Assembly (NCBI GenBank): GCA_000025185.1
Contig: CP001848.1
Coordinates: 1,170,001-1,202,000 of the forward strand
Direction of reading: 5' to 3'
Length of the DNA: 32,000 nt
Origin: Pirellula staleyi DSM 6068
GTDB lineage: Bacteria > Planctomycetota > Planctomycetia > Pirellulales > Pirellulaceae
Shown: positions 9,896-32,000 of the stretch, in pieces
How positions within the stretch are numbered: the first letter of the stretch is position 1
Layout: every line of letters starts with the position of its first letter
Notes under the pieces: generated by a model
The model's database searches: none
What the model was told of the DNA's origin: nothing
Seen by the model: only the letters and a program-made list of their open reading frames with translations
Translations under genes and position numbers: made by a program

Positions 9896-9898
9896 GCT

Positions 9899-14552: not shown

Positions 14553-14601
14553 GCCCGCCAGGTCTGTCCCCTTGGGACCGCCTGATAATCACGCTACGCT
14601 T

Positions 14602-14647: not shown

Positions 14648-14690
14648 GACTTCTGTTTCGGGCGATGGCAACCTTCGAAGGAATTTCGCG

Positions 14691-15458: not shown

Positions 15459-15527
15459 GCCGGGTGCTCTGGAGGCTGTGATCAAACATCCCTAGCAGTC
15501 CGTCTATCGATCCATACCAGGTCTTGG

Positions 15528-15938: not shown

Positions 15939-16499
15939 ATGCCAGCCGACGAAATTCTGTTCGACGTTGAAGAACGAATGGAAAAAGCCATTTCGGTTCT
16001 CAAGGGCCAACTTGCCGGTATCCGCACCGGACGCGCGAATCCGGGTCTTGTGGATTCGCTCCGCGTGGAAGTCTACGGCAGCCCGACCCCGATGAAATCG
16101 CTCGCCTCGGTCGGTGCCCCCGAACCGCAGCAGATCGTCATCCGACCTTACGACGCCAGCACGATCAAAGACATCGAAAAAGCGATCATCGCCAGCGGAC
16201 TCGGCTTCGCGCCGCAGAACGACGGTCGTGTGATCCGCCTCAATGTGCCGCCACTCACCACCGAAACGCGCCGCAAACTGGTGGCTCGCATCAAGGAACT
16301 GACCGAAGAAGCGAAGGTCTCGATCCGCAACGTTCGCCGCGATGGAAACAAAGCAGCCGAGCAAGAGGAGAAAGACAAACTCCTTTCGGAAGATGAGTGC
16401 AAAAAGGTCAAGGAAGATGTGCAAGAGCTGACCAAGAAGTACGAGAACACCGCTGGCGAAATGGCCAAGCATCGCGAAGCGGAAGTGATGGACAACTAG
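15939..16499 (+). CDS. frr: Ribosome recycling factor
   Basis: The ATG at 15939 follows GAAGGA. The 186-aa sequence MPADEILFDVEERMEKAISVLKGQLAGIRTGRANPGLVDSLRVEVYGSPTPM...LNVPPLTTETRRKLV is canonical RRF. The track ORF (from 15645) is over-extended into the spacer. Confidence 0.95.
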   Translation: MPADEILFDVEERMEKAISVLKGQLAGIRTGRANPGLVDSLRVEVYGSPTPMKSLASVGAPEPQQIVIRPYDASTIKDIEKAIIASGLGFAPQNDGRVIRLNVPPLTTETRRKLVARIKELTEEAKVSIRNVRRDGNKAAEQEEKDKLLSEDECKKVKEDVQELTKKYENTAGEMAKHREAEVMDN

Positions 16500-16671
16500 C
16501 AGCTTTTTCAGGCAAAAACGCCCCAAAACGCTCGCCAGCCGACTCGAACTTCATCAGCCATTCATCGTTGTGGACTAGAACGAAGTCTCACGTATCCCTG
16601 CGTGGAGTTGCCTCACGCCGAGCAACTCCACGTCACGATTTTTGCTCCGCTTTTCGAAATCGAGCCTGCTG

Positions 16672-17604
16672 ATGCCCCGCCCTGTGTCGATCACGATTGT
16701 CTCCCTGCGCCTGCTCTCGATCATCGCTTTCCTGGCGGGATCTCTGATGACCAGCCCCCTGTTTGCCGCCGATGCAATCCCTCCCGCGCGCGAGCTCGTA
16801 CTCGGCAAACAGGTCCTCATCATCGCCCATCGTGGCAACAGCAGCGAGTTTCCCGAGAACACGATTCCCGCCTTCGAGTCGGCGGTGAAAGTGGGGAGCG
16901 ATCTCGTCGAGCTCGATTACTACCATAGCGGCGACAATCAGCCTGTCGTCATTCACGACAACATCCTCGACCGAACCACCGACGCTGAAAAAATCCTTGG
17001 GGAAGGAAAGTTGCTGGTCGCTAAGACTCCACTGGCCGACCTCCTGAAGCTCGACGCTGGCACCTGGTTCGACGAAAAGTTCTCCGGTACGAAGATCCCG
17101 ACACTCACCGAATCGATCGACGTGATTCAAAGCGGCAGCACGACACTGATCGAGCGAAAAGCGGGGGATGCCGACACCGTCGTGAAAGTGATCCAGGAAA
17201 AAGAACTGATGGATCGTGTGGTGGTGCAGGCGTTCGATTGGGACTATGTCAGCCGCTGCCGCGAACTCGCACCGACACTCATGCTCGCCGCACTCGGAGG
17301 CAAAACCGCGAGCCCTGCTCAGCTGAAAGCTGCCGCGAAAACCGGAGCGCAAGTGATTGCCTGGAATCATCAAGAGATCAGCAAAGCACAGATCGATCAG
17401 ATTCACGAGCTCGGCTGTAAGGCTTGGGTCTACACGGTCGACGACCCCAAACGAGCCCTCAAACTGCTCGAAGATGGGATCGATGGGATCATCACCAATC
17501 GCCCCGCGACGATGCTCAAGCTACGTGCTGCCTATGAAGCCGCACAAGCGAAAGCCACCGGACCGAAAGCCACAGAGTCCACAGCAGCTGAATCGGCCGA
17601 GTAG
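16672..17604 (+). CDS. Secreted glycerophosphodiester phosphodiesterase (GDPD family)
   Basis: The ATG at 16672 gives the signal peptide MPRPVSITIVSLRLLSIIAFLAGSLMTSPLFA. The catalytic motif is IAHRGNSSEFPENT. The blocks ELDYYHS..G..VVIHD, GTKIPTL and the C-terminal DGIITNRP are typical of GDPD. Confidence 0.85.
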   Translation: MPRPVSITIVSLRLLSIIAFLAGSLMTSPLFAADAIPPARELVLGKQVLIIAHRGNSSEFPENTIPAFESAVKVGSDLVELDYYHSGDNQPVVIHDNILDRTTDAEKILGEGKLLVAKTPLADLLKLDAGTWFDEKFSGTKIPTLTESIDVIQSGSTTLIERKAGDADTVVKVIQEKELMDRVVVQAFDWDYVSRCRELAPTLMLAALGGKTASPAQLKAAAKTGAQVIAWNHQEISKAQIDQIHELGCKAWVYTVDDPKRALKLLEDGIDGIITNRPATMLKLRAAYEAAQAKATGPKATESTAAESAE

Positions 17605-17631
17605 CCAACTCCCCCCGCGAAGCGGCCACCG

Positions 17632-18645
17632 CTATCGTTTCCAGAAGCTGTCGACGAGCAGCAGCACGCTGTAAATCACCATCGCAGCGATGCCATACGG
17701 GGCATACCAAAGCATGCCGATGTCGCGCACCCGAGGTCGGCTCAGCACACGCTCGGGATCGCTCTTTAGGTAAAGCACATCGGTCGCTTCCCCCACTTCG
17801 CGCGGCAGCATGTAGAAATCGGCTGCCTCCCAGCGCAGTGTGTGGGTCACCCCTGCTGAGTCTTGATACTGGACGTCGTATTTCGGCGCTGCTCCCTCTT
17901 CAATCGCGGTCACCTTCCCGGAATAGATTTGGGGATCGCTCCAGGCCGACTGCGCCTGTGTCGCCAGCACCACACACGCGACCAGCGAAACGACAAGCGC
18001 GAAGGTCGCAAGCAGCTTCAGCAAACTCCAGCCGCGACGTGGCGCAGTGGTCTTCGCGTAGGCAAACAGCTCGGGCAATTTCGGATCGATCGCCATTTCG
18101 AGCTGTTTTTTAGAAAGCTGCCCAAGCCCTTTCTTGGGGACGAACTCCGGGAGCCGCAGCACCACCTGATGGACGCGGCCATACTGCATCACCAGACCGA
18201 TCGACGACTCTTTGAGCCATAGCGTGCCACGCAGCAAGAGTTCGCGCGGATTCTCTTCGCGCTCGCCGGTCGAGGGGCCGGTCATCTCGCCCGCAAAAAG
18301 GCTGTCATAAGGATCGCTATCGGCCCGCCACATCGTGCGGGAAAATTGCTTATTCCCAATCGCCAGCAGCGCCACATCGAGGGTCGCGCCGACGATTTTC
18401 TCTCCCTCAATCGCCAACTCTGGATGGCTCGAGACGATGTCGAGCAGTCGATACGGCTCTTCTTCCTCAAACGTTAGCTCGATCGCTTGCGGCGCGATCT
18501 CCATCCACTCGTGCTCGCTCTCGGAAAACTCAAAAGCCACACCAGTGGCAGCGAGTGCTCGCAGCACCTCGCTGTGCGTCATGCCAAGTCGCAGGGGGCC
18601 AATCCCCTCCCCGACCTTCAGCGGCCAACTCGCTTGCAGCGCCAT
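17632..18645 (-). CDS. Membrane protein of unknown function: N-terminal soluble domain plus a C-terminal TM-beta-TM module (DUF3592-like)
   Basis: 337-aa ORF with ATG (complement of 18643-18645). Two hydrophobic helices, WSLLKLLATFALVVSLVACVVLA and MLWYAPYGIAAMVIYSVLLLV, flank a beta-rich segment of ~100 aa. The gene lies 135 nt downstream of top6A on the same strand. Confidence 0.55.
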   Translation of the reverse strand: MALQASWPLKVGEGIGPLRLGMTHSEVLRALAATGVAFEFSESEHEWMEIAPQAIELTFEEEEPYRLLDIVSSHPELAIEGEKIVGATLDVALLAIGNKQFSRTMWRADSDPYDSLFAGEMTGPSTGEREENPRELLLRGTLWLKESSIGLVMQYGRVHQVVLRLPEFVPKKGLGQLSKKQLEMAIDPKLPELFAYAKTTAPRRGWSLLKLLATFALVVSLVACVVLATQAQSAWSDPQIYSGKVTAIEEGAAPKYDVQYQDSAGVTHTLRWEAADFYMLPREVGEATDVLYLKSDPERVLSRPRVRDIGMLWYAPYGIAAMVIYSVLLLVDSFWKR

Positions 18646-18780
18646 ACAAGATCTTCCCGTACAAAAGCTACCGATCGCCAGCGAGTCGGAGCGTCAGCGC
18701 GTCAGTTCCTCAGCGAGCTGGGGTGGCTACTAGCTAGATTGTCCAGCAGTGAGCTTTCCTCGACATCGTGTGCAGCAGCA

Positions 18781-19935
18781 CTAATCCAAGAACTCGCCCG
18801 ATTCGAGCAGTTCAGGAACATATTCCTCGGTGACGTAGCTGATATCTTTGCTGATCAAGGATTCGACTTCGAGTTTGAAGCCGTTCTTGAGCATCATTTC
18901 GATCTCTTTCTGCCACGCCTTTTTCTTGATGAACCAAGGATAGCTGGCGATTTGTTTGGCGCGCTTAATGTCTTGATCGTTGAGCTTGATCTTCACGCTG
19001 CTCGATAGGCCGCAGCGATCGTAGTCCAAACTACGCAGACCCAAATACCGCGCGCCAGGAATCGCCATCCGCTCGGATTCGTAGGCCAGGTTGATCGAGC
19101 CCTGCTTGATCACGCTGTAGATGTAGTAGCCCCACGGATCGTTATCGAGCAAGCAATAGACTGGCAACTTCAGTTCGTTATGCAACCGATAAAGCATCCG
19201 GCGCACGCCGCGCGGAGGCTGTCCCGCACCATGCGTGAGAATGCAGTTGTGCTTGAGCCAAAACTTATCTTCGTTGAAGCGCTGCCAGACTGTATCTTTT
19301 TCGACATGCAGGATGAACTTGGCTTTGACATTCTTAAACGTGATCCGGTCGGGTTCGACGATCGACGGAATGCCGTAGCCACCTGACCCCATGCGTGTGC
19401 AATCGATTTCATCGCCACTATCGACCACGGTGATCTGCCCCACCATTTCGCCGCGTTTTTGCGCGTAGAGATGGAGTTCTTCACGCAGCGAGGAGAGAAG
19501 CACCTCGACATCCTCGATCATCGTGTCGGATTCACTCTGCTCTTCGAAGGTCTCTTCGCTCGTCCCATCGATGGTGTGCTTGAGCATGTAGTACAGACCT
19601 CGAAGGCTCGTGGTCTTGCCTTGCTCGATGAGGCGCTTGCAGCCGCTGCCGACCAGCACTGTTTGCATGAACGCTTTGGCCTGCGACAGGTTGAAGAGTT
19701 CGCGCGATGTTTTGGAGCTTCCCATCTCCAAGATTTTTTGCGACTGGTTGAACTTCACGTTCGACAAGCTGCGACTGAGGATACTCATCTCTGGCGCTGT
19801 CTTTTGCGTAGCGCTTTTGGCGACATCGCTCGCGAGTTTCCTGAGGGAATCGAGCGTCTTCTTATCCTTGTCCGTCAATTTGACCGGTTCGGCAGGTTTA
19901 TTGGCCGGACGCGTATTGGAAGTCTTCTTAGCCAT
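18781..19935 (-). CDS. top6A: DNA topoisomerase VI subunit A (Spo11/Top6A family)
   Basis: 384-aa ORF. The catalytic-tyrosine region is TSLRGLYYMLK. The Toprim acidic residues are in FILHVEKDTVWQRF and YCLLDNDPWGYYIY. The C-terminal KLEVESL block is also present. Length and motif order match archaeal Top6A. Confidence 0.9.
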   Translation of the reverse strand: MAKKTSNTRPANKPAEPVKLTDKDKKTLDSLRKLASDVAKSATQKTAPEMSILSRSLSNVKFNQSQKILEMGSSKTSRELFNLSQAKAFMQTVLVGSGCKRLIEQGKTTSLRGLYYMLKHTIDGTSEETFEEQSESDTMIEDVEVLLSSLREELHLYAQKRGEMVGQITVVDSGDEIDCTRMGSGGYGIPSIVEPDRITFKNVKAKFILHVEKDTVWQRFNEDKFWLKHNCILTHGAGQPPRGVRRMLYRLHNELKLPVYCLLDNDPWGYYIYSVIKQGSINLAYESERMAIPGARYLGLRSLDYDRCGLSSSVKIKLNDQDIKRAKQIASYPWFIKKKAWQKEIEMMLKNGFKLEVESLISKDISYVTEEYVPELLESGEFLD

Positions 19936-20277
19936 GTCGTCGCTTCATCCGAGGGAATAACTTGCTAACTGAATGTCGAAATTGGGTGATGAAAAGCCTC
20001 GCACTTTCATCGCATCCAACCTCAATATCCAACTTGATGTCGTTGTTAAAAGGTACAGCCTAAACTTTTCGCTTGCCGGCAATTGCGGGGGGTCAAACAC
20101 CACGATTTAGCGATTTATGAGGGAGCTTTTTCGTTGCACTTGTCCCTTGGATGGTTACACTTGCCCTGACTGCCCCTACACATTTAGCGGCAATCACTGG
20201 ACTATCGATTCGCTCGCTACGCGCTGAAGTGATGCCATCAACTCGGGACCGATCTCTCTTAATCTTGGGGACCTCTC

Positions 20278-20736
20278 ATGGAAGCTGACAACTTTGAGTC
20301 TTTTGAAATGGACGTCGCGCCGCAGCAACCTCGGTCTTATCTTCATTTTTTGATTGTTTCGCTGGGACTGCGCTATACCATCGGGCTTCCACTGGTTGCC
20401 CTGCTCTCGTTTATCGCCATTGTCCTACTGCTCCTGTTTGGCAAGAACCGTTATGTGGGTGCTGCCATCCTTACGATTTTGCCCATGGAACCCTTGATGG
20501 GAATGTATGCTTTCGTCGATGGACTGATTGCCTCGTTTCAGGTGATCTCCATGGCAGGCGTTGCTCCCAAGCCGGCAGACATGGCTGAAGGTTTTGCCAT
20601 GTCGCTGGTGGCGACGCTGGTTTCTCTGGCCCTCAGTTGCCCGATCTTTCTCACGGCCGCGGTGGGGCTGTCGATCCGAGCCATCTTGCCCGATACCCAG
20701 CCCGTGGGATCAGCACCATCGAAAACAACCCCCTAA
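20278..20736 (+). CDS. Small polytopic membrane protein with a MotA/TolQ/ExbB-like C-terminal helix pair
   Basis: 152-aa ORF with 3-4 hydrophobic helices. The segment PADMAEGFAMSLVATLVSLALSCPIFL resembles the conserved LA.GI..AL.TT..GL.VAIP stretch of the MotA/ExbB family. It is encoded antisense between top6A and top6B. Confidence 0.5.
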   Translation: MEADNFESFEMDVAPQQPRSYLHFLIVSLGLRYTIGLPLVALLSFIAIVLLLLFGKNRYVGAAILTILPMEPLMGMYAFVDGLIASFQVISMAGVAPKPADMAEGFAMSLVATLVSLALSCPIFLTAAVGLSIRAILPDTQPVGSAPSKTTP

Positions 20737-20785
20737 AACCATTGCCGATTTCGTGCCTGTCATCGAGGGGGATGGAACGAAAGAC

Positions 20786-22798
20786 CTACGACGCGGTGAC
20801 GCCACCCTCCTCTTCGTTTTGATTGACGATGAGGACATGCTCGCCAAAATCTTCTTCCTCTTGTTTTTCAATACGGCGGCCGCGATCGTCGAACTTGGCG
20901 TCAGCCTCGGCTGTCTTTTTCTTTGCGACCTGCAAGAGGCTCTCGTAGAGCTTGGTCTTGTCGTGCTTTTCGTCGATGGTGTTGATGGCGGTGGCCACTT
21001 CATTGAGGTAGCGCAGGAAGATGCTGCGGCGCTCTCCCTCTTGCTTCACCTTGTTGCGACGATTGAGGTAGATGCCCAGTTTGCGACCGACAGCTTGCAG
21101 GCCGAGGCGCAACTCTTTTTGGATTTCGGGATAGCCGGCGATTGCTTCTTTGGATTCGCTGGTGAACGGGACCCAAACGCTCGCCATGTGCACCATGATG
21201 GTGAGAGGACCTTGCGGCAACTGGCCGCGCGATTGCGAAACGCCATAGCTGCGCCAGTTGGTGGCGATGACACTTTGCGTGATCGCGCAGGCGGCATGCT
21301 GGAACTGCAGTGGCACGCGATTGGCGTAGCGCAGCACCTGCATCGTTTGCCCTTCGGAGAGGTTCACGTTCCGCATCGCCGCGTGGAGCGTGGCGATTTC
21401 GTCTTTCGTAAGTTTCGATGGGCTTTGGCGTGAGCCGAACTGCGCTTCGCTGAGGATCCGCTCGGAGGCATCGCTCCCGACACCATCGAAAGTGCTCATC
21501 AGGAACTGACGAAGTGTTCGCGCATCGCTTTCGCTCAGGAGCTCGGTGAGCGCTTCGAGCGACACCTTCTGGGCGGCGCTTACGCCACCAAAAGCGAGGC
21601 CGACTTCGATCTGGAACGGATTGCCGCGATAGACGGCGGGTGGACGAGTGGCAGCGGCGTAGAACTCGCCCGGGACCACATGATGCAAACCTTTGAGGAT
21701 CAAAGGTTCGCCGATCGGTGTAATGCAGTCGGTTGCCGGAGCGCTGATTTTGGTGGCCTGGATCGCTTGATAGAGGGCATCGACCTCTTGCCGGCCGATC
21801 CGTTTGCAATTGGCTCGGGTGCTGATTTTGGCCGTATCGCAAATCTCTTTGGCAACACTGGACGACACACGCGAGAACGAGTCGGTGAGGAACTGCGAGA
21901 TGGTGCCAGCGGGGGTGTCTTTGAGCATCGTCACCAAACGGCCCAGCTCGACGCCGTAGGGATGCGGCTTAATTTCTTTCGGTTCTGGGGGCAACTCGGT
22001 GGTGCTTCGGCTGTACGAAATGCTGCCGCCATCGGGATCGAAATAGTGGATCGTGACGTGCGGGTTGGCGATCGCCGTTTGCTCGAGATATTCATCCACG
22101 CTGCCGCGACCACGGATGTATTTCCCCTCGAGCTCGATCGTCACGCTGGTGCCACTCTTCACTTCGGTGGCTGGTTTTTCCCCTTCAGCGGGATACATCG
22201 TTTGCCAGCAAATGCCACGCTTGTCGAGCGTGGTGGCATCGGTTTCGATGTCTTCCCCTTCACCCTTACCGTTGATGATTTCGGGGTGGTTGCGCTTGGT
22301 ATCGATCTGGATTTCGAAGTAGTGCGCAGGTTTTTTCGGCGAGAGCTTGGAGACAATGCGGACCGGCTTGCCGGTGGTGAGCATGCCGTACATGCCAGCG
22401 GCCGAGATACCAATTCCTTGCTGACCGCGGCTCATCCGGAGGCGATGGAATTTGCTGCCGTAGAGGAGCTTGCCGAAAATCAGCGGAATCTGCTTTTTGA
22501 CGATGCCGGGACCGTTGTCTTGCACGGTCACCTGGTAGCGATTGTTGCCGGTCGAAGCCATCGTGACCCAGATTTCGGGAGTGATGCCCGCTTCTTCGCA
22601 CGCATCGAGGCTGTTGTCGACCGCCTCTTTCACCGTGGTGAGGAGCGCCTTGCGCGGATTATCAAAGCCGAGCAGATGGCGGTTCTTGGCGAAGAACTCA
22701 CTGACGGAGATATCGCGCTGCTTGGTCGCCATGCTCTCCGCTGTGGCGCGTCGCTGAGGTGCTTCCGGTGTCGTCGATTCGGAGTTGGCGTCGAGCAT
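20786..22798 (-). CDS. top6B: DNA topoisomerase VI subunit B (GHKL/Bergerat ATPase plus transducer domain)
   Basis: 670-aa ORF. The N-terminal region is ISVSEFFAKNRHLLGFDNPRKALLTTVKEAVDNSLDA (N-box). G1 is DNGPGI and G2 is SRGQQGIGIS. Helix-two-turn-helix and transducer regions follow, with a charged C-terminal tail. Confidence 0.9.
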   Translation of the reverse strand: MLDANSESTTPEAPQRRATAESMATKQRDISVSEFFAKNRHLLGFDNPRKALLTTVKEAVDNSLDACEEAGITPEIWVTMASTGNNRYQVTVQDNGPGIVKKQIPLIFGKLLYGSKFHRLRMSRGQQGIGISAAGMYGMLTTGKPVRIVSKLSPKKPAHYFEIQIDTKRNHPEIINGKGEGEDIETDATTLDKRGICWQTMYPAEGEKPATEVKSGTSVTIELEGKYIRGRGSVDEYLEQTAIANPHVTIHYFDPDGGSISYSRSTTELPPEPKEIKPHPYGVELGRLVTMLKDTPAGTISQFLTDSFSRVSSSVAKEICDTAKISTRANCKRIGRQEVDALYQAIQATKISAPATDCITPIGEPLILKGLHHVVPGEFYAAATRPPAVYRGNPFQIEVGLAFGGVSAAQKVSLEALTELLSESDARTLRQFLMSTFDGVGSDASERILSEAQFGSRQSPSKLTKDEIATLHAAMRNVNLSEGQTMQVLRYANRVPLQFQHAACAITQSVIATNWRSYGVSQSRGQLPQGPLTIMVHMASVWVPFTSESKEAIAGYPEIQKELRLGLQAVGRKLGIYLNRRNKVKQEGERRSIFLRYLNEVATAINTIDEKHDKTKLYESLLQVAKKKTAEADAKFDDRGRRIEKQEEEDFGEHVLIVNQNEEEGGVTAS

Positions 22799-23492
22799 AC
22801 TTCAATCGATTGGAGAGTGTGAAATGGGGGAACAAGGGGATCCCGATCGAGCTGCCCGAGCGTTTGATTTCGGGAGGTCGGTCGACGGGAGCAAGGTGCT
22901 AGCCTCGCTCGGGGAGCGAGCGCTCGGCTTCCAGGAGTTAGCAGCTATCGACCATTGGTGCCCCGCTTCTCAAGCCCGAGGAGAGGTGCAAGCGAGAGCC
23001 CAGGACCGACAAAAGTTGCAGCCAATCGGGAAGAAACGGTTGCTCGATGCCTCCCTTGCAAGGTGCAAACGTGCTGAAGGTAGCGGGCCGGGTGTCAGCA
23101 GCAAGCGCTGCATCGATCGGCGCTCGAGGTGACAAGTTTGGTCGCCAACCGCTCCTGCGGTCGAGCTTGCCTGCGTGGCAAACCTGGCGAATTGTAGCGA
23201 GTTTGCAGGCAAACTCCCAGCGGGCTTTAACGGCGGGTTGGGTCGTAGTGGCGGTGCCTGTTTTGTGTTGCTCGAGCGACGCTTAAAGGGCTCACACGGC
23301 TGGCTCAGTGGTGCCGAAGAAACGTTTTAGAGGAGTTGCCCATTCGCAGCTGTTTCTCAAGGGCGCCAAAGGTCTCTAGCGATCCAGGCTTGCCCCCACT
23401 ACTCAAATTGTTATTTCACGAGCCCTGGCGGGGAACGCAGTTCCAGAACCGCGAGTGAGCTCGAAGGGTGTCGAGCAAAAGGAGTTGCATCG

Positions 23493-23921
23493 ATGGTTCG
23501 AATGCTTGCTATTGCCAGCCTGGCCTTTTCTATCGCCATTGCGACTTCCTACGCCGCCAACGCCCAGGAAGTTTGCGAAAACTGCGAAGAAGGGGCAATT
23601 CAAGGTTGGGCCGGAAATCGTCGCGTTGGTGGAGCTGGCAACAGCTATTCGCCCGGCGGTTGCCAATATCGCGCTTATGGTCAGCCCGACCTGTTCTACA
23701 ACTACTACACCGGCGACAACTGCGGCGCAAACCCCGCTCAGATGTACCTGTCGCCACGTCCAGTTCCAGCGCACGTGGGGCACACCTACATCACCTATCA
23801 GCCCCTGATGCCGCACGAGTTTCTCTACCCTCACCACCGCACCTATCATCGCTACTACAACGGTGGCCAAGGGTTGACCCGCACGAGCGTGCATTACTAT
23901 TCGCCTCTGTTCCGCAAATAA
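23493..23921 (+). CDS. Small secreted Tyr/His/Gly/Pro-rich protein with 4 Cys, unknown function
   Basis: The ATG at 23493 has a strong SD (AAGGAG, 23479-23484). The signal peptide is MVRMLAIASLAFSIAIATSYAANA. The mature part contains CENC, GGCQY and DNCG, plus HVGHTYITYQPLMPHEFLYPHHRTYHRYY. Confidence 0.7.
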   Translation: MVRMLAIASLAFSIAIATSYAANAQEVCENCEEGAIQGWAGNRRVGGAGNSYSPGGCQYRAYGQPDLFYNYYTGDNCGANPAQMYLSPRPVPAHVGHTYITYQPLMPHEFLYPHHRTYHRYYNGGQGLTRTSVHYYSPLFRK

Positions 23922-24042
23922 TCAGCCTGGCAATTGGTTGCTCGGAAACGGTTGAAACTGTTTCCGAGCCGACACTTCCATCCGCTAGCCACTGCCGACT
24001 ACTACTTCACATCCGTCATCGCTCCCCCCGAGGAGATTGGTT

Positions 24043-24426
24043 ATGAAACTCGTTCCAACCGTCGCGCTGCTGGTGGTTGCAGCCGTGCTGGTCACCACCT
24101 TCGCAAGCACTGCCGAAGCTGGTGGACCGCATGGTCGCGCCGACCGTTTGGGTCGCTACTACGCTTCGCAGCGTCCGTGGCACGGCCCTTACGCCCACAC
24201 CAGCTACGGTGCACCGGTGGCCCTGATCGTTCCACCAACGGCCAACATGCACACCAGCTATGCCTGGGGTGTCGCTCAAACCGAAATGGTGCCGATTTAT
24301 CACCAGTTCCGTCGCGACTATCCGGGCGTCAGTGGTGGCGGTGGTGGCTATGGCTACATGCCCACACCTAACTGGCCCAGCCACACCGATCAGTTCGGTG
24401 TCTACCCAGTCCGTGGTCCATGGTAG
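24043..24426 (+). CDS. Small secreted His/Tyr/Pro/Gly/Trp-rich protein, unknown function
   Basis: The ATG at 24043 has SD AGGAG (24031-24035). The signal peptide is MKLVPTVALLVVAAVLVTTFASTAEA. The mature part contains WHGPYAHTSYG, NMHTSYAWG and a GGGGGYGYMP tract. A terminator follows. Confidence 0.7.
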   Translation: MKLVPTVALLVVAAVLVTTFASTAEAGGPHGRADRLGRYYASQRPWHGPYAHTSYGAPVALIVPPTANMHTSYAWGVAQTEMVPIYHQFRRDYPGVSGGGGGYGYMPTPNWPSHTDQFGVYPVRGPW

Positions 24427-24472
24427 TCATTCTGATTTGATTGCTGCAATCACTTCGAATACAAACTAGCGA

Positions 24473-24505
24473 GGCGAAGATTCTTGATGGAATCTTCGCC
24501 TTTTT
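24473..24505 (+). terminator. Rho-independent terminator of the two-gene secreted-protein operon
   Basis: 11-bp stem GGCGAAGATTC / GAATCTTCGCC with a 6-nt loop (ttgatg), followed directly by TTTTT. Confidence 0.8.
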
Positions 24506-25090
24506 CGTTAACCAATTGCTGTATCGATAGTTACACGACCTGCCTGCAACGATCTTGACGACAGTTGGCACGGGCGTTGCTTTAGATCTCTTCCATACCG
24601 CATCGAAAGCGATGTCGCTAACGACGGGTGTGCTTGTGCAAGCCACAAGCCCGGGTTGGGGATGGAAGGAACGCGTCACATGTTCTCGTCACTCATGGTT
24701 GGTCTGGGTTACTTCACGCTGGTGGCCTCGATCTTTTGGCTTTCCCGCCCAGTCCGCACACTCCACCCATTTTAACCTTTCCGTGAACTGGCTCACGTTC
24801 CGACAGCCGGCTGCCGATTCGTAGGGTTAGAGCCTTACCAGTTCTACCTCTCAGGAAATCTGTGTATGCCGGACGGAAAACGTCGGCGTCGACATAGCCA
24901 GAATGTCGCGCGTCGTCAGTGGTATGCCCAGCATCGCTCGCAGCGATTCTGTCGGCGGTTCGGATGGATCCCACCTTCCCCTTCAAGCACATCGCCCCAG
25001 TCGAGATCCTCACGGACGATCCTGGCAGCGGTTGCTGTTTAGTCGGGCAGATCATCAGCCAGAATGCTCGGCCACGAGCTGGGCGGCTAG

Positions 25091-27595
25091 CTATCGCGAT
25101 GATTCGCTGACGATTTGCTCGAACGGCAGCTTCCAAGCGGTGCCATCGAGCCCCGGAGGCGAAGCGAGTAAAAAACTGGCCAGCGCCTTGGCTCCCGCGC
25201 GGTCGCCGAGCCGCAGCTGAGCGGTTGCCACTCGATGTTTGGCACGAAACCAGCGTTCGGTGCGCGGGCGACTCTTCGATGCCACCAGGCGCCACTGCGC
25301 CAGGGCGCGCTCGAGCGAAGTGCGATCGGTGGAATCGAGCAGCAGTTCCGCCAGTGCTTCTTGAACCCGCGCATCTTGCGGATGGCTCTTGGCAAGTTTC
25401 TCGAAAGCGACGAGCGCTTCTTCCCATTTACCAAGCGATGCCAAAGCGCTCGCTTCATGGCGCGAGAGTGTCAGCTGCGACGCGCTGTTTAAACTCGTCG
25501 CGCTACGTCGCCAATGCTCGACAATCGCCAGGCGGACACTCGCCAGTTGCTGCTGATGCTGTTTGCCACCCGCTGGAAAGGTTTCGAGCGTGTCGAGGAG
25601 CGCGGTGAGCGAGAGATCGTCGACCGGGAGTCGCTTCACGAGCTCTTCAGCATCGTCGGCGCGTGCGGGATCACTAGCCATCGCGACCATTTGCCAGCGC
25701 GCAGCCGACGCAGTCCAAGCATCGTCGGGAGCTGGTATCCCCCGCGCACTCGCGGCGAGCATCGACTCGGCCAGCGCTTGCTGCGCGGTGTAGGTGATCA
25801 GCAACTCGGCTGCAGCCAGCACAAGTTCGCGATCGCCAGAACTCCACATCGCTGGAAGTTTTCGCATCGCGCCGAGCAATCGTAGTTCGAACGCTGCCAC
25901 ACTCTCTTTGGCCACCTGCATACGATCGTCGGCTGATGCCTTGATCACGGCAGCGCGAGCACAAGCGATAAGCAGCTGCGTTGCTTCTTCAGCTTTATCA
26001 CTATCGCGCGGAACGAGAGCCGATGCGCGAATAGCCGGGGCCAGCTCGGCGCTGGTGGCAGCCAGTCGCATCCGCCAAATCGCCGCTTGCTGAGCAGACG
26101 CTGCTGTCGGCCAAAGTCGCAAATGCTCGTCGAGCTCGCGTGTGTACTCGGCAAGCACCTCCGCACTACTGCGTGCCGCTTGTGCAAGATTCCACAAGCC
26201 TCGCAAGTGAGCCGTCGATGCTTCGGCGCTAGCAGGATCGCTGGTCGCGAGTGCAACAAATTTTTGAGCGGCTGCCGGATAGCGTTTCTGCTGCTCATCG
26301 ATCATCGCACTCTTGAAAGCAAGCGAGAACGCGCTCGTCAAATCGCCAGCCAGTTTCGCGCTCGCAGCAGCCTCGTCGTAGGCTTGGCGTGCATCCTCGA
26401 GCGAACCTTGCAAGTAGAGTCGATCAGCAGATCGCGCCAGCAGTTCACTCGCCCCGCTCGACGCTTTCGGAAGTGCAGCCAGGAGCAAATTATCGGCGCG
26501 TCGGCCCCAGTAAGCACCATGATTGCTGACGATCGTAGATGTCCACTCAGCCGCTTCACCGGCGATCTCTTTTTGTTCAGCCGAGCTTGCTGGCAACTGC
26601 TTAGCGCGCACGAGCATCAGTTCGAGAATCGCCAGATCGAGTTCTGCCGAACTGCTCCCATCGAGCGTGCGCTCAATCGCTGTCGGATCGGGCAAAACGG
26701 CGTCTTTTCCTAGAAATAACAGCCTTAATGCTTCTGCTCGCGCGTCGAGTCGCACGTCGCGCGGCATCCCTTCTTGGTCGAGCTTGGTGGCCAACTCACT
26801 CGCCTGGGCCACTTCTCCGAGCTGCCGCCAGGCACGAATCAGTTCAAGCGCAACTTCGTTGCGAACAGGATCTTCTTTCGTCAACTTCGTCGAGACAGCG
26901 ACCAAAGTTTCAGCCGCCGAGAGGAGCAGCGCGCGTCGGTCGTTCGACGTTGGTTCATACATCTCGGCACGGAGCAATCGTGCGCGAGCTTGGTGATAGC
27001 CCAGGTGACTTGCCAAGATAAACAGCTCGTCGGCTGTCGGCTCATCGGGTTTAGGTTCGACGCGACGACGCTGAGGAATGTCGATCGTGAGCTTTGCTGC
27101 CAGCGCTTCGATCTCGGTTTCGGCTTGACGTAACGCTGCGAGTGCCGCTTGCTGCTGCGCTGGAAGCCGCGAACTCATCGCTCCTTCCACTACAATCACT
27201 TCACCTCGCGCGAGACTCGTCAGCGCCGCTTGCAGCACAATGGAGGCTTCAAACGGATGCGCTGGATGCGTTTTACGAAATCGATCAGCCTCCGCAATCG
27301 CTTCGTCGAACTTCTCGGCACGCTCGGCTCCCGAGAGTTCGAGGGCGTGAAGCCCCAGTGTGCGCATCAATTCTTCTAGCGCTACGGCTTGCTCGCGAGC
27401 ACTCAAGTTCGTCGTTTGCAACTGATCGCGGCAAACACGTTCTGCCAGTTCGTACAGCCGTCGACTTCGTAGCGCAATCACGAGCGAGCGCTCATCAGCC
27501 GCCACATCCGATGGGGTTATCAGCAGCCAAGCAGCCAGTGCAATTGCATGCGCCCAGACAGCAAAATGATCACGCGAGAAAGGTCGCATCGTCAT
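25091..27595 (-). CDS. Large (834 aa) all-alpha, TPR-like repeat protein with an N-terminal signal/anchor; last gene of the ExbBD operon
   Basis: Its ATG overlaps the upstream ExbD stop (ATGA at 27592-27595). The N-terminal hydrophobic segment is FAVWAHAIALAAWLLITPSDVAA. The remainder is Ala/Leu/Arg/Glu-rich helical-repeat sequence with no catalytic motif. Confidence 0.7.
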   Translation of the reverse strand: MTMRPFSRDHFAVWAHAIALAAWLLITPSDVAADERSLVIALRSRRLYELAERVCRDQLQTTNLSAREQAVALEELMRTLGLHALELSGAERAEKFDEAIAEADRFRKTHPAHPFEASIVLQAALTSLARGEVIVVEGAMSSRLPAQQQAALAALRQAETEIEALAAKLTIDIPQRRRVEPKPDEPTADELFILASHLGYHQARARLLRAEMYEPTSNDRRALLLSAAETLVAVSTKLTKEDPVRNEVALELIRAWRQLGEVAQASELATKLDQEGMPRDVRLDARAEALRLLFLGKDAVLPDPTAIERTLDGSSSAELDLAILELMLVRAKQLPASSAEQKEIAGEAAEWTSTIVSNHGAYWGRRADNLLLAALPKASSGASELLARSADRLYLQGSLEDARQAYDEAAASAKLAGDLTSAFSLAFKSAMIDEQQKRYPAAAQKFVALATSDPASAEASTAHLRGLWNLAQAARSSAEVLAEYTRELDEHLRLWPTAASAQQAAIWRMRLAATSAELAPAIRASALVPRDSDKAEEATQLLIACARAAVIKASADDRMQVAKESVAAFELRLLGAMRKLPAMWSSGDRELVLAAAELLITYTAQQALAESMLAASARGIPAPDDAWTASAARWQMVAMASDPARADDAEELVKRLPVDDLSLTALLDTLETFPAGGKQHQQQLASVRLAIVEHWRRSATSLNSASQLTLSRHEASALASLGKWEEALVAFEKLAKSHPQDARVQEALAELLLDSTDRTSLERALAQWRLVASKSRPRTERWFRAKHRVATAQLRLGDRAGAKALASFLLASPPGLDGTAWKLPFEQIVSESSR

Positions 27596-28047
27596 CGCTC
27601 CGTGGCTGCGAAGCGAACTTGCGAGAATCCAGCAAGGCGCGCACGATCATACACATCGATCGCATTTCCGAGCGGAATTTCCGCATCAGGATGCACAATC
27701 ACCGGCACATCCGACTTAATCGCAGCCAGGGTTGCAAGCGCCGACTCGAGCGCCACGAGCGACACTTGGGGCACATCATTGAGCAGCACGGTTTGCGAAC
27801 TTTCGTCGCCAATCAGCCGCACCACCACCTGGTCGAAGTCGGCTTCCGGAGGAGGTGGTTCGTTGGTCGGTGTACTGCTACCCGCAACTGGTGATGTCAC
27901 CTGCACACTTCCGGGAATCGACTGCTCGGCGATTTCGAAACTACTGCTCCAGATGAAATAGACCATCAGTAGAAAGACACAATCGATCATGGGCGTCAGC
28001 TGCAACTCGACTTGTTCACGACGCGATCGCGAGGATGGAAGCTTCAC
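27592..28047 (-). CDS. Biopolymer transport protein ExbD/TolR, paralog 2
   Basis: Its GTG start overlaps the upstream ExbD stop (GTGA at 28044-28047). The TM signature LTPMIDCVFLLMVYF retains the conserved Asp. The periplasmic domain ends in IPLGNAIDVYDRARLAGFSQVRF. Confidence 0.85.
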   Translation of the reverse strand: MKLPSSRSRREQVELQLTPMIDCVFLLMVYFIWSSSFEIAEQSIPGSVQVTSPVAGSSTPTNEPPPPEADFDQVVVRLIGDESSQTVLLNDVPQVSLVALESALATLAAIKSDVPVIVHPDAEIPLGNAIDVYDRARLAGFSQVRFAATER

Positions 28048-28472
28048 GGCTGAGCCTCCTCGGGATAGACGGCGTAGGTCACATTCCAGATGTTCAGCTT
28101 CGCGCAGCGCAGCAGCAGGGGCTCGATATGTTTGTAAACCGTCCCTCGATCGCTGCGCAGTCGAACCTCGAGCTTCTCGCCAATTTCCGAGCGGCGCGCT
28201 GCGAGAAGTTGCTCGACATCATCGACCGACATCGTCCGGCCTTGTGCCATCAACTCACCACTGGCCAGCACGCTGATCGTCAAACGCGTATCGCTCGACT
28301 CGCGATCATCTTCACCTGAACGCGCGATCGGAAGTGGCAACTCGAGCTGCGATTCGCGCTTGGCTAAGTGACTCGACACCAAGAAGAAAATGATCAGCTG
28401 AAACACCACGTCGATCATCGGCGTCATGTTGAAACCGACACCACTGCTGGCTGTCATACTGGGAATACGCAT
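28044..28472 (-). CDS. Biopolymer transport protein ExbD/TolR, paralog 1
   Basis: ATG at complement 28470-28472. The TM signature NMTPMIDVVFQLIIFFLV retains the conserved Asp. The periplasmic domain contains LEVRLRSDRGTVYKHIEPLL..CAKLNI. Confidence 0.85.
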   Translation of the reverse strand: MRIPSMTASSGVGFNMTPMIDVVFQLIIFFLVSSHLAKRESQLELPLPIARSGEDDRESSDTRLTISVLASGELMAQGRTMSVDDVEQLLAARRSEIGEKLEVRLRSDRGTVYKHIEPLLLRCAKLNIWNVTYAVYPEEAQP

Positions 28473-28484
28473 GATGCTTGAACC

Positions 28485-29387
28485 TCAAGAACGTGCCGTT
28501 TTTCCCGGAGAATTCGCAGGTGGTGGAGGTGGCGGTGGAGGGGGAACCACACTCGCCGATCGACGCTTGAGTGGCGACACCGCATGCTGGGCGGCATAAG
28601 CAGCCTCGGCAATAAATTGATCAACCCGATTCCGAAAAATTGCAAAAGCGCCGAGCGATGGAATGGCGATGATCAGCCCCACCACAGTAGTGACGAGCGC
28701 TTGATAGATGCCATCGGCCAGTTGCGCTGCACCAGCATTTCCTTCCGAGTCAGCCACTTCTTTGAAGGCAAGAAGCATACCGGTGACCGTTCCCAAGAGC
28801 CCCACCATCGGCGCGATGTTACCAACCACCGAGAGATACTCGACCTTCCGAAACAATCGAGCCGACTGTTCGGCGGTGGCATCTTCCATCGCTTTTTCTA
28901 CTTCGCTGTAACCACCCTCAGCTTCCGCCAGACCGTAGAGCATGACGAACGCGAGGAGCGATGGCCGCTTGCGACAAAGCTCGGCCGCTTCACTCAGTCG
29001 GCCACTTCCCACGAGCGCTCGTGTCTCTTCACCAAGCCCATCGGGAATCAGTTCACTCCGTCGCAAGATCATCAGATTGTCGAACACCAGATACGCGGCT
29101 GTGAGCGAGAGCCCGATCAGCACGAGCATGATGATGACACCGACAGGTCCCCCCGAGAACAGAATCTGAAAAAACGATTTGCTCGGCTTTTCCGCAGGAG
29201 CCTCCGGCGCAGCAGCAGGCTGAGTCGCAGTCACTGGCGGAGTAGGAGCCACTTCTTGCGCGTCGACTTTCACAGTTAACAGGAACGTCAGCAGCACACC
29301 GAACACAAGCACGATAAACCGATCCAAGCGAACCTCCTGATAGCGAGTCGCGCAGCGAGGAACTTGCTCGCGATCGTCACTCACCAT
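28485..29387 (-). CDS. MotA/TolQ/ExbB proton-channel protein with a signal peptide, a Pro/Ala-rich periplasmic extension and a C-terminal poly-proline tail
   Basis: I prefer the ATG at 29387 (track TTG at 29408). The conserved block is LSVVGNIAPMVGLLGTVTGMLLAFK...LADGIYQALVTTVVGLIIAIPSL. The C-terminus is VVPPPPPPPPPANSPGKTARS. Confidence 0.85.
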   Translation of the reverse strand: MVSDDREQVPRCATRYQEVRLDRFIVLVFGVLLTFLLTVKVDAQEVAPTPPVTATQPAAAPEAPAEKPSKSFFQILFSGGPVGVIIMLVLIGLSLTAAYLVFDNLMILRRSELIPDGLGEETRALVGSGRLSEAAELCRKRPSLLAFVMLYGLAEAEGGYSEVEKAMEDATAEQSARLFRKVEYLSVVGNIAPMVGLLGTVTGMLLAFKEVADSEGNAGAAQLADGIYQALVTTVVGLIIAIPSLGAFAIFRNRVDQFIAEAAYAAQHAVSPLKRRSASVVPPPPPPPPPANSPGKTARS

Positions 29388-29458
29388 TTCCTGAAGACTT
29401 GCAAACAACTTGATGCGCCTTCACTCAATAAGTATTTAGAAACTTTTGACAAGTAAGG

Positions 29459-30508
29459 TCACTTTGGTGGCGGTTTTGTCGCATCGAGCCGACTTTGTCC
29501 TTCGCGTGCGGCTGCAGTCGCCGGGAAGTCGGTGACAAGCTCTTTCCAAAGTGATTTTGCCTGCTCCAAACGCCCCAATTTGTCGAGCTGCTTACCGGCG
29601 GCGAGTAGCGCATCGGCTGCCAGTGCAGCATGCTCGCGATGCTCCAGAGCCGCTCGCAAATAGGCAATCGCTGCTTGCTCCGACTCTCCCACGCGCGCTA
29701 GTCCCTCCCCCACAACATACCAGCCGACTCCCTGCACTTCGCGGGGCATGCCGATTAGCTGCTGTTTCCAGCGTGTGACATCTTCGGGCTTGGCCGTGAC
29801 CACTTGCGTCCGCCAGCGCTGTTGCCAGGCCAGCGCCGCTACACGCGGATCAGCGTCGCTCGACAAACTAGCCAGCTGCTCGATAGCCTGCGCGCGCTGC
29901 TTTGTCGCTAAGAGCCAACTTGCTCCCATCACACGCACCAGAGCATCGCGCGATTGACTCCACTGCGTTGCGGCTGCCTCTTGCGGCGCAGTGAGCGATG
30001 CCCCTTTCCATGCGACCGGTGTTAGCGGCGCGAAGATCGTTTCGGGATCGCTGGCTAGCAGCACGCGAAACTCTTCCCCCGCGCGATCCCACTGCTCGAG
30101 CTCCAGATGACCGCGCACCATATCGGCGGTGATCTCGCGAATCACAAAAGCGCGCGACTCATCGCGCCGCGCTTGCCGCAAGCGATCGATGGCCGACTCG
30201 ATATTTCCCGCGCTCAGCTCCGCAAGCGCTTCGCGATGTAGCGCCGAGCGCGTGAAGCTGATGCTACGAACACGCGCGGCAGGAAACTCTTCGACACTTC
30301 CCGTGGGAACTTGCAGCTTTAGCAAACGCCCCGTGTAGTCGACGATTCGGCCGGTGCGTGTCGTCAGCAGATCGCTCGATGTCGACGCCGTCATCGTTAC
30401 ACGGTCGAGTTCATCGGACGATGTGGGGACCTCTTGCGCCACGCACTGCGCTGCGGCGACGACAACGCACAGCACCCCTAATAACAGCGTTTTCCCAGTG
30501 TTTTTCAC
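29459..30508 (-). CDS. Secreted protein with a small N-terminal beta domain and C-terminal TPR-like helical repeats
   Basis: The GTG at 30508 yields an ideal signal peptide, (M)KNTGKTLLLGVLCVVVAAAQCVAQE. The alternative GTG at 30559 lies only 4 nt after the vWA stop. The C-terminal half is helical repeat (AIAYLRAALEH..., LEQAKSLWKELVTDFP). Confidence 0.65.
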   Translation of the reverse strand: MKNTGKTLLLGVLCVVVAAAQCVAQEVPTSSDELDRVTMTASTSSDLLTTRTGRIVDYTGRLLKLQVPTGSVEEFPAARVRSISFTRSALHREALAELSAGNIESAIDRLRQARRDESRAFVIREITADMVRGHLELEQWDRAGEEFRVLLASDPETIFAPLTPVAWKGASLTAPQEAAATQWSQSRDALVRVMGASWLLATKQRAQAIEQLASLSSDADPRVAALAWQQRWRTQVVTAKPEDVTRWKQQLIGMPREVQGVGWYVVGEGLARVGESEQAAIAYLRAALEHREHAALAADALLAAGKQLDKLGRLEQAKSLWKELVTDFPATAAAREGQSRLDATKPPPK

Positions 30509-30563
30509 GTCTACGGAAACTTTCGTCGCAGTCGTTCTTGCTATAGCAAGCAACTTCACATCC

Positions 30564-31580
30564 CTACCGCGCGGGGAGACTTGTCACGTCGATGTACCGA
30601 TGTTCGCCACCATTTTCTTTCGCGATCTGCTGCAGAAAATTCCACCGCGATGCCTTGGGACCTGCGCCGAACTCGATCGCGTGGATGGTGGTTCCGCGAT
30701 TCATCCGATGAATCGATTCGAGCTCTTCAGGCCGGAGCGCGGGCTCGTCGGCATCGGTCAAAAAGAAGATCACGTCGGGGTCGAGCTTCAGCGCCATCTT
30801 CAGCGGCACCAGATGCTCAGTTCCTCCCGACGCCACAATGCCACGCACAAACCGCTGGGCCAACTCTTTGTCGCGCTCGTTGCCGAAGAACAACTGCAGG
30901 CTTTGCCCACGAAATGGATTCATCACCTCGGGGCGTTCGTTGTAGAAGATGATCTGGAATTGATGCACGTTGCCCAGATGCGAGATGCTTTCGATCAGCT
31001 GCTCTTTCGCGGCGGCGATGGGACGACCACCATAGCCTTCCATACTGCCGCTACGATCAAACACATAAACGAAACGGCTCCCTTTTCCGGTGATCCCAAA
31101 CACCTGGGTCTCGGCCTCGCTACCGTTGCCAACACCGGGCCGCGTCCCTTTTCCACCACCACCACGGACCGCTTCCGAGGCACCAGGAATCGCCATCGCC
31201 TCGAGCGCCGCGCCACTGGCCTGCTCTCCTGTCGGAAGCTGGGGACCTGGCAAATCGCTCGGTAAAATTTCGGGAAGTGCCGCAGCAGCGGCTGAAGCAT
31301 CGGCGCTGCTCAGCGACGTGTCGGGCGATAGTGGCCCTGCCGCTGCTTCTTCGGAAAAGTATTCGGTTTTGCCAGCGGTTTGTTTCACAATCACGATGCC
31401 GCCATCGCGCAGTGGAATCCCTAGACTCGCCGATCGACGCGGAGCATCTTGCACCACCACAGCCAAAGTGGTGATGACGGTGAAATGCAACCCAAGCGAG
31501 AGGAGCCACGCTGGGATGCCGCGCGATTTGGTCGCAAGTGGCTCGAGCGGCGCTGGCCTCTCGATTTCGCTCGATCTCAT
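30564..31580 (-). CDS. Membrane-anchored von Willebrand factor A (vWA/MIDAS) protein with TonB/TolA-like topology
   Basis: I prefer the ATG at 31580 (track TTG at 31688). There is a single TM helix, IPAWLLSLGLHFTVITTLAVVV. An Ala/Pro/Ser/Gly-rich linker of ~90 aa follows. The vWA domain has a complete MIDAS: DRSGSM (DxSxS), ASGGTE (Thr) and FFLTDADE (Asp). Confidence 0.8.
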   Translation of the reverse strand: MRSSEIERPAPLEPLATKSRGIPAWLLSLGLHFTVITTLAVVVQDAPRRSASLGIPLRDGGIVIVKQTAGKTEYFSEEAAAGPLSPDTSLSSADASAAAAALPEILPSDLPGPQLPTGEQASGAALEAMAIPGASEAVRGGGGKGTRPGVGNGSEAETQVFGITGKGSRFVYVFDRSGSMEGYGGRPIAAAKEQLIESISHLGNVHQFQIIFYNERPEVMNPFRGQSLQLFFGNERDKELAQRFVRGIVASGGTEHLVPLKMALKLDPDVIFFLTDADEPALRPEELESIHRMNRGTTIHAIEFGAGPKASRWNFLQQIAKENGGEHRYIDVTSLPAR

Positions 31581-31793
31581 TGGCGGATGCGACACAGAAG
31601 TGGATCCTGCCTCAAGCGAGCGCGAAGGATGTGAAGAAACCCACTCGCGCGCGATGTATCGACAAAACTCGCACGCAGGCGTGGCCAAACAGACTCGGCC
31701 CGCGCGAATTCTAGGGAGATTAGCCGCTCGGGGTCAATCCGAACGTCGAGGCAACTGCTAGCGTCGCCTCGCCGCTGCGACTCACCCGCCCAA

Positions 31794-32000
31794 CTACTGC
31801 CGAGCCGACTTCCAGCCCGAATCGTCCCAAATCTCTTCGTTTTGCACCACCGGTGCGGCCACCGCGTGGGTCGGAGCCGACAGCGAAACCTCGCTCGCGT
31901 GGGCGGGAATTTCGTAGCTCATCTTCCGCTGCATGCTCGCCGCGCGATGTTCCGAGGGTCGGCCATACACAGCAGGCACAACCTGCCAGCGGGGATCACG
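31794..32000 (-). CDS. C-terminal end of an unidentified protein whose start lies beyond the right window edge
   Basis: The reading frame of the 61-aa track ORF stays open upstream to position 32000 (...RDPRWQVVPAVYGRPSEHR...). I recognise no motif, and it may not be coding. Confidence 0.25.
   Translation of the reverse strand, partial: RDPRWQVVPAVYGRPSEHRAASMQRKMSYEIPAHASEVSLSAPTHAVAAPVVQNEEIWDDSGWKSARQ

Follow-up and report, generated by a model that had tools for sequence, protein, structure and literature searches.

We report here on a six-gene operon of the planctomycete Pirellula staleyi DSM 6068, which lies at 25091-31580 on the reverse strand of a 32,000-nucleotide stretch of its genome (contig CP001848.1, positions 1,170,001 to 1,202,000). 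This whole stretch is called the window below, and coordinates refer to it unless a locus of another genome is named. On the whole, the operon probably encodes an envelope machine of the Ton/Tol type, driven by the proton motive force (PMF), in which a vWA (von Willebrand factor A) domain replaces the usual head of TonB or TolA. The genes are read in the order vWA protein, 366-aa tetratricopeptide repeat (TPR) protein, ExbB, ExbD1, ExbD2 and 834-aa TPR protein. A PMF-energised vWA module had been hypothesised in an initial annotation of the window, and the domain, motif and synteny checks reported here support that hypothesis. The same annotation took the module for one not characterised before; in fact, the family has already been predicted computationally by Williams-Jones et al. 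(2025, Mol Biol Evol 42:msaf138; PMC12204202). That paper predicts 'vWA force transducers' in the Planctomycetes-Verrucomicrobia-Chlamydiae (PVC) group, with the same gene neighbourhood, as inner-membrane-tethered proteins having a helix with SHLS, a motor box, a disordered or proline-rich domain II of ~100 residues, and a C-terminal vWA domain. The seed comes from Tichowtungia aerotolerans, and AlphaFold 3 (AF3) models of other members place the conserved His on the motor. Matched on architecture and gene neighbourhood as described there, the operon is a member of the predicted family.

The head of the vWA protein is confirmed, on its AlphaFold 2 (AF2) model, to adopt a vWA fold. Residues 153-338 are modelled as an alpha/beta domain with a predicted local distance difference test score (pLDDT) above 90, and the top 50 Foldseek matches listed against the PDB are overwhelmingly domains of the vWA type with a metal-ion-dependent adhesion site (MIDAS), among them ITIH4 (7.8e-11), ITIH1, the bacterial vWA protein 4fx5, Cav alpha2delta, CLCA1 and ANTXR2. 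A profile of the vWA family searched against the PDB also meets ITIH4 (7.4e-9), and its non-vWA matches are all non-significant (E of at least 0.13). The MIDAS residues D175, S177, S179, T254 and D276 are invariant in 73 homologs, and the DxSxS motif is found in all of the 82 loci examined. The complete MIDAS vWA domain which the initial annotation had placed at the C-terminus is seen alike by AF2, by Foldseek and in the invariant MIDAS. By sequence models the vWA call is sub-threshold, since Pfam VWA_2 gives 26.1 bits (1.4e-5) against a cutoff of 27 bits.

The usual transducer domains were not found in the operon. Against the TonB_C, TonB_2 and TolA models of Pfam and NCBIfam, none of the six proteins gives a match at E<=1. 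A cryptic TonB/TolA domain was rejected for the vWA head, where the PDB profile search and the AF2 and Foldseek results give vWA relatives only; for the 366-aa TPR protein, in whose AF2 model and Foldseek matches no TonB-like domain appears; and for the 834-aa protein, where the only phmmer match in the PDB is a marginal one to the TPR of CpoB (E 0.28). This is in accordance with the initial annotation, which had seen no TonB/TolA C-terminal domain in the operon.

The part of the vWA protein that precedes the head has two features of TonB and TolA, namely a transmembrane (TM) helix with S-x3-H and a periplasm-spanning domain II. The helix is modelled by AF2 at residues 24-43 with pLDDT about 90 and contains no Asp. 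Alignments of 22 and of 73 homologs both show its W25, S28 and H32 as invariant, and in the smaller of the two L39 (H+7) reaches a conservation of 90% or more. The spacing S-x3-H-x6-L is the spacing of the TonB/TolA SHLS motif. By a strict test, S-x3-H is found inside a hydrophobic helix in 77 of the 82 loci, the failures including a contig-truncated ORF (open reading frame) and motif-bearing sequences that miss the test threshold; among the complete loci, essentially every one has the motif. After the helix comes a conserved segment which is a candidate motor box, as this element is defined in PMC12204202. In its pattern R58-GGIVL-x-EYF, no variation is seen at R58 and Y74 among 22 sequences, and among 73 both positions keep a conservation of 90% or more, a level that V63 and L64 also reach in the vWA homolog alignments. 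AF2 gives short strands at 67-68 and 71-72, and the motor-box strand is of low confidence because they sit in an otherwise disordered region of low pLDDT. The linker as a whole (A 18%, G 15%, P 10%, S 10%) has pLDDT below 55 throughout, and its length varies from 96 to 118 aa across the vWA family. The TonB/TolA-like layout and the Pro/Ala/Ser/Gly spacer of the initial annotation both stand, with the spacer being 109 aa rather than the ~90 aa given there.

Two features argue for an N-in, C-out orientation of the vWA protein as predicted from its sequence, namely the S-to-H order along the helix, which fits N-in TonB/TolA, and the fact that every partner encoded in the operon is periplasmic by prediction, namely two TPR proteins with signal peptides and the periplasmic domains of the ExbDs. 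An inverted topology, with the helix as a signal anchor and the vWA head in the cytoplasm with no periplasmic role, finds some room in the charge bias around the helix, which is not decisive. Besides the two features above, the Foldseek relatives of the head (ITIH, alpha2delta, CLCA1, ANTXR2), which are extracellular proteins of adhesion type, speak against such an arrangement, and we hold it to be very improbable.

The motor is recognised by Pfam in all its three subunits (Table 1), and they score better against the TolQ/TolR than against the ExbB/ExbD models of NCBIfam (for ExbB, 86.5 bits with TolQ and 55.3 bits with ExbB). The ExbB protein aligns to the long Serratia marcescens ExbB (7ajq) and to Escherichia coli ExbB and TolQ, the GTV and LxxT motifs matching those of the E. 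coli ExbB, and the equivalents of the pore Thr in TM2 and TM3 are kept in 62 of its 63 orthologs. Its N-terminus is signal-peptide-like and leads into a Pro/Ala-rich periplasmic extension that aligns with the N-terminal extension of the 'long' ExbB in 7ajq; at the other end of the protein, the tail includes ten prolines in a row. The initial annotation had noted that the essential TM Asp is retained by both ExbD paralogs, which holds in the window and in nearly all orthologs. In paralog 1 (TolR 2.4e-10 in NCBIfam) this Asp lies within NMTPMIDVVF, is included in the alignment to S. marcescens ExbD (7ajq_F), and is conserved in 57 of 57 orthologs. In paralog 2 it lies within LTPMIDCVF, followed by a longer and proline-containing post-TM linker, and is conserved in 50 of 52. 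Since the two share only 36% identity over their first 44 aa, they form a heterologous pair.

Both TPR proteins appear to be exported, their orthologs starting with signal-peptide-like hydrophobic segments when inspected. The 366-aa protein matches TPR_6 of Pfam (3e-6), and its C-terminal part matches TIGR02795 tol_pal_ybgF of NCBIfam below the cutoff (2.9e-9). Its AF2 model (pLDDT 90.6) has a 5-strand beta domain at 52-101 and a TPR solenoid at 106-360, which ends in a YbgF/CpoB-type TPR module, and the Foldseek matches are generic TPR scaffolds only. Inspection of the orthologs of either TPR protein gives no conserved lipobox Cys, so that a lipoprotein status like that of a CpoB ancestor is unsupported; paralogy of the two was also rejected, with no significant BLASTP similarity between them. 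In three loci of other genomes they are fused into one ORF of ~1160 aa directly after the vWA gene (L066, 7071-10544; L075, 8592-12068; L077, about 8583-12008). As some genomes fuse them, the two TPR proteins may act as one unit by Rosetta-stone evidence. These three loci have no exbB/exbD nearby while their vWA protein keeps S-x3-H, which suggests that the motor can be supplied in trans.

The TPR proteins are also where a static role for the vWA protein has to be considered. It might be a passive inner-membrane adaptor which, with the TPR proteins, builds a periplasmic cage positioning or regulating the ExbB/ExbD stator, with the output of the motor going via ExbD itself or via a TonB/TolA-like protein encoded elsewhere. 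TPR scaffolds surround flagellar stators. TPR proteins are typical scaffolds, the periplasmic scaffold of the Campylobacter jejuni flagellar motor is among the generic Foldseek matches of the 366-aa protein, the 834-aa protein has a very weak match to FlcA_CTERM of NCBIfam, and loci with the vWA and TPR genes and no motor genes do exist. These scaffold-like matches are however generic TPR similarity, far below the family cutoffs, and the invariant S-x3-H(+L), the motor box and a linker of periplasm length are hard to explain for a static adaptor. As for an output through TonB, some Pirellulales have it, but most Planctomycetes reportedly lack canonical TonB and TonB-dependent transporters (Speth 2012). 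We consider this static account unlikely.

The arrangement of the operon is far beyond chance, as dozens of related genomes show the genes in this order too. Homologs of the vWA protein, counted as cluster representatives of a 50%-identity library, number 5264 at E<=1e-3, 2495 at E<=1e-10 and 603 at E<=1e-30, and out of 600 pattern matches, 564 held up in a genome scan. Among the best 80 loci, all but one are labelled planctomycete, mostly Pirellulales-type, and the loci include Blastopirellula marina DSM 3645, Bremerella and Rhodopirellula. Synteny was counted with tblastn for genes downstream on the same strand, only in loci where the contig leaves room (Table 1); the 366-aa protein alone as query gave only 5 homologs, and its search was repeated with a profile. 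The relative gene order of the window is kept in the tabulated loci, and in the closest relative (locus L083, vWA protein 77% identical) the operon is identical, overlaps included. The initial annotation had proposed a comparison of gene neighbourhoods, and the vWA gene is indeed co-conserved with exbB/exbD in related genomes. Variation is seen in the Anatilimnocola-type loci (L002, L004, L011), which have a single ExbD and lack the large TPR gene. No conserved outer-membrane partner gene adjoins the operon in the genomes compared, the flanking genes of which vary. Among published data, a stress-transcriptome paper on Rhodopirellula baltica has a 327-aa vWA protein, RB7557, in the gene table of its overview section, and exbB/exbD of this organism (RB12053/RB12055) are salt-induced; for neither could orthology with the operon be established.

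This conservation bears on a further explanation, in which the vWA and TPR genes belong to a Bat-like or MoxR-type vWA system, or to a Zorya-like anti-phage module, and ExbB/ExbD are an unrelated Ton motor in the neighbourhood. An N-terminal membrane anchor is joined with vWA and TPR in proteins of the BatA/BatB type as well, and PADLOC gives ExbB weak ZorA-superfamily matches (1.4e-4 and 18.9 bits at most). Against it, vWA-TPR-ExbB-ExbD-ExbD-TPR is kept as one block, and the conserved block order with overlapping stop and start codons argues that the motor genes are not accidental neighbours. A Bat/MoxR-type system was rejected because neither a MoxR AAA+ nor a DUF58 gene is present in the operon or among the flanking ORFs searched (13638-32000), and Zorya-like defence was rejected because the weak ZorA matches of ExbB are all that PADLOC gives, with nothing for the other five proteins; the neighbours, moreover, are housekeeping genes and vary among genomes, unlike those of a defence island. 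We judge this explanation to have little probability, if slightly more than the inverted topology.

The reading that we prefer, a PMF-driven machine with a vWA head, is supported from several sides. At the level of sequence, the conserved motor residues, the invariant S-x3-H, the beta-prone segment, the disordered linker and the MIDAS head all point to it. Conserved synteny, tight packing and the signal peptides of the TPR proteins add to this, as do the motor-less loci, which keep S-x3-H and fuse the TPR proteins, and the independent published prediction with AF3 complexes in PMC12204202. Our analysis shows which domains are present, which motifs are conserved, how the head is folded, and that export signals, synteny and the fusion exist; physical coupling to the motor, force transduction and a target are what we infer by homology with ExbBD-TonB and TolQRA. 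On these grounds, an ExbB pentamer would surround a heterodimer of the two divergent ExbD paralogs, and proton flow via the ExbD Asp and the ExbB Thr ring would turn or stroke the motor. The N-terminal helix of the vWA protein would dock, through S28, H32 and L39, on the outside of the pentamer, and the motor box would engage the periplasmic domains of the ExbDs. The disordered linker of ~109 aa would span the periplasm, and the MIDAS head would grip an acidic residue of a partner. The two exported TPR proteins would be the periplasmic partners of the head, either as adaptors and scaffolds or as the ligands themselves. A speculative candidate for an acidic residue completing the MIDAS is the invariant D52, close to where the mature 366-aa protein is predicted to begin.

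Several observations weigh on the other side. The fourth SHLS position (Ser at H+11) is not conserved, and the positive-inside rule is undecided on topology, with K+R averaging 2.0 N-terminal to the helix and 2.3 C-terminal to it. The TM3 Glu of ExbB/TolQ is regarded as functionally important in E. coli. In the ExbB of the window this residue (E. coli ExbB E176, TolQ E173) is replaced by Gln, 'GIYQALVTTVVGL', and among 63 orthologs the position is Gln in 49, Leu in 8 and Glu in 1; the motor is thus not a textbook ExbB, as the Glu176 equivalent is Gln in most orthologs. Furthermore, 10-20% of the loci with room have no motor genes beside the vWA gene, where any coupling would need to be in trans, unless the vWA-TPR unit can do without a dedicated motor. 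The authors of PMC12204202 state that the function is unknown and that deletion phenotypes have not been reported, and our literature search found no experimental follow-up of vWA transducers. The invariant motor-binding motif, the synteny of the block, the absence of MoxR and DUF58 from the ORFs searched, the weak or empty PADLOC results and the periplasmic partners make the three rival explanations less likely than the preferred one.

As to what such a machine might do, we tentatively suggest that in Pirellulales it could be a PMF-driven, metal-dependent clamp and a functional stand-in for Tol-Pal and/or Ton, one that ties the inner membrane reversibly to an outer-membrane or peptidoglycan-associated partner via the two-part TPR adaptor. 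This suggestion is more doubtful than the general reading. Canonical TonB and its dependent transporters are reportedly lacking in most of the phylum, and according to the supplement of PMC12204202 Planctomycetes have no Pal. If true, the suggestion would help explain how the outer membrane is kept up and remodelled in FtsZ-less, budding planctomycetes with a greatly enlarged periplasm, or how macromolecules are pulled inward. Ton and Tol are the two classical routes by which inner-membrane energy reaches the outer membrane in diderms, and a third class of transducer with a metal-dependent gripping head would widen this picture. As the vWA class appears nearly ubiquitous in a lineage largely without TonB and without Pal, it would give a handle on the planctomycete envelope. 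The present locus is of value as a clean and complete six-gene example of a concept published as a prediction only, offering targets for point mutation (S28 and H32, MIDAS D175, S177 and S179, and the TM Asp of each ExbD) and, in the two TPR proteins that are fused in some genomes, testable partner candidates.

Below we give the layout of the operon and its surroundings, with all features collected in Table 1. The initial annotation described six tightly packed genes on the same strand, and all six co-oriented ORFs are confirmed at its coordinates, together with both of its 4-nt overlaps (28044-28047 and 27592-27595). Of its gaps, those of 4 nt, of 50 or 71 nt (with TTG or ATG as exbB start) and of 12 nt are correct, and a fourth of '0 nt' is impossible, because six genes have only five junctions. 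The vWA gene starts at ATG 31580, with alternative starts at GTG 31595 and TTG 31688. A sigma-70-like promoter match lies upstream of it; the number of promoter-like sites in 24400-32000 (1 observed) is not above the 1.6 expected from shuffles. Terminator-like matches are likewise not above expectation (9 against 7.3 in shuffles), and in the same scan none is intergenic on the operon strand.

Table 1. Features of the six-gene operon in the window, and the number of loci in which each gene is found downstream of the vWA gene on the same strand
Feature	Position	Strand	Description	Loci with gene / loci with room
vWA force-transducer candidate, 338 aa	30564..31580	-	short N-terminus, TM helix, motor box, disordered linker, MIDAS vWA head	
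TM helix AWLLSLGLHFTVITTLAVVV, residues 24-43	31452..31511	-	TonB/TolA-type S28-x3-H32, L39 at H+7	
Candidate motor box beta-strand(s) RDGGIVIVKQTAGKTEYFS, residues 58-76	31353..31409	-	conserved segment after TM helix	
Putative periplasm-spanning domain II linker, residues 44-152, 109 aa, motor box included	31125..31451	-	disordered, A/G/S/P-rich	
C-terminal vWA domain, residues 153-338	30567..31124	-	complete MIDAS	
MIDAS D175-R-S177-G-S179	31044-31058	-	part of vWA domain	
MIDAS T254	30819-30821	-	part of vWA domain	
MIDAS D276	30753-30755	-	part of vWA domain	
Exported TPR protein, 366 aa	29459..30559	-	signal peptide, 5-strand beta domain, TPR solenoid	65/75 (immediately downstream)
ExbB/TolQ-type pentameric stator subunit	28485..29408	-	MotA_ExbB 2.6e-27 (Pfam)	59/70
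ExbD/TolR paralog 1 (ExbD1), 142 aa	28044..28472	-	ExbD 1.7e-19 (Pfam)	54/67
ExbD/TolR paralog 2 (ExbD2), 151 aa	27592..28047	-	ExbD 6.6e-19 (Pfam)	51/67 (distinct second copy)
Exported TPR-like protein, 834 aa, conserved sixth gene	25091..27595	-	weak TPR and BamD-like matches (Pfam, NCBIfam)	39/56
Sigma-70-like promoter match TTGACC-18-TAGAAT	31708..31737	-	upstream of vWA gene; weak evidence	

The flanking genes of the window are housekeeping ones (EF-Ts, RRF, Topo VI). On the upstream side, 31792-32000 (reverse strand) holds the C-terminal end of a same-strand gene running off the window. Its counterpart in the closest relative (L083, 2700-4346) codes for 548 aa and has no Pfam domain, and neither Lignipirellula nor Anatilimnocola keeps the gene beside the operon. 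Just downstream, the operon is followed by the two subunits, Topo VI A/Spo11-like and Topo VI B, of a bacterial topoisomerase of type IIB (18781-19935 and 20786-22798, both on the reverse strand), the B subunit having an equivalent position in the closest relative. Two small forward-strand ORFs of 142 and 129 aa (23493-23921 and 24037-24426) have hydrophobic, signal-peptide-like N-termini and bodies rich in Tyr/Gly/Pro/His, and neither has a Pfam match; they may encode small secreted proteins. At the equivalent position, 11877-13475, the closest relative (L083) also has small genes without a recorded Pfam match. In addition, the G+C content drops to 0.48 at 11001-12000, compared with about 0.58 elsewhere in the window, and scans of the whole window give no Rfam family or tRNA.

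We finally compare the operon with the known systems nearest to it. With the Ton system it shares a motor of the ExbB/ExbD family, having the essential ExbD Asp and the ExbB pore Thr, and an N-in single-pass transducer with the S-x3-H-x6-L helix, the motor box and a flexible domain II. Unlike Ton, it has neither the TonB C-terminal domain (PF03544) nor a TonB-dependent transporter, it has two ExbD paralogs, and its ExbB has Gln for Glu176. The mode of binding would also differ, as vWA biology leads one to expect metal-coordinated binding of an acidic residue by the MIDAS head instead of beta-strand addition to a TonB box. The initial annotation had likened the gene order to the exbB-exbD-exbD-tonB-TPR layout of Bacteroidota, with the transducer replaced. 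With Tol-Pal (TolQ-TolR-TolA-TolB-Pal-CpoB) the likeness lies in the motor, which is closer to the TolQ/TolR models, in the TolA-like topology of the transducer, and in the YbgF/CpoB-type module that ends the 366-aa protein, whose CpoB-like matches are below family cutoffs; TolA domain III, TolB and Pal are not found among the six genes. The Myxococcus AglRQS-Glt machinery with its vWA adhesin CglB also has a TolQ-like and two TolR-like paralogs and a vWA protein tied to a PMF motor. There, the vWA adhesin is an outer-membrane lipoprotein and not the transducer bound to the motor, and other proteins provide the TonB-like parts. Glt homologs were not seen among the six genes, and Pirellulales are not known as gliders. 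A gliding role is suggested for vWA transducers in PMC12204202; for this operon we favour a role in envelope tethering or in pulling on outer-membrane proteins.

The last two comparisons are with families described in that same paper. In the TPH-vWA or TolQ-only systems, too, a vWA protein tethered to the membrane has a genetic link to a TolQ-like pentamer. Those systems, however, have no exbD/tolR genes and no SHLS, and their vWA proteins carry an ExbD-like trans-pore helix with an Asp, whereas the window operon has two ExbD genes and a vWA helix with S-x3-H and no Asp. In the case of the vWA force transducers, the vWA gene comes first here while the text of PMC12204202 says 'downstream of'. 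Our analysis adds details that we did not meet in the available account, namely the conserved 834-aa TPR sixth gene, the TPR-TPR fusion in motor-less loci, the motor-less and single-ExbD variants, the Gln at the ExbB Glu176 position, and the frequent occurrence of the operon among the planctomycete genomes sampled, most of them from Pirellulales. For the rest, the operon and these transducers have the same SHLS-type helix with the key His, disordered linker of ~100 residues, motor box, vWA head and motor-gene neighbourhood, and nothing essential differs between the operon and the family as there described.

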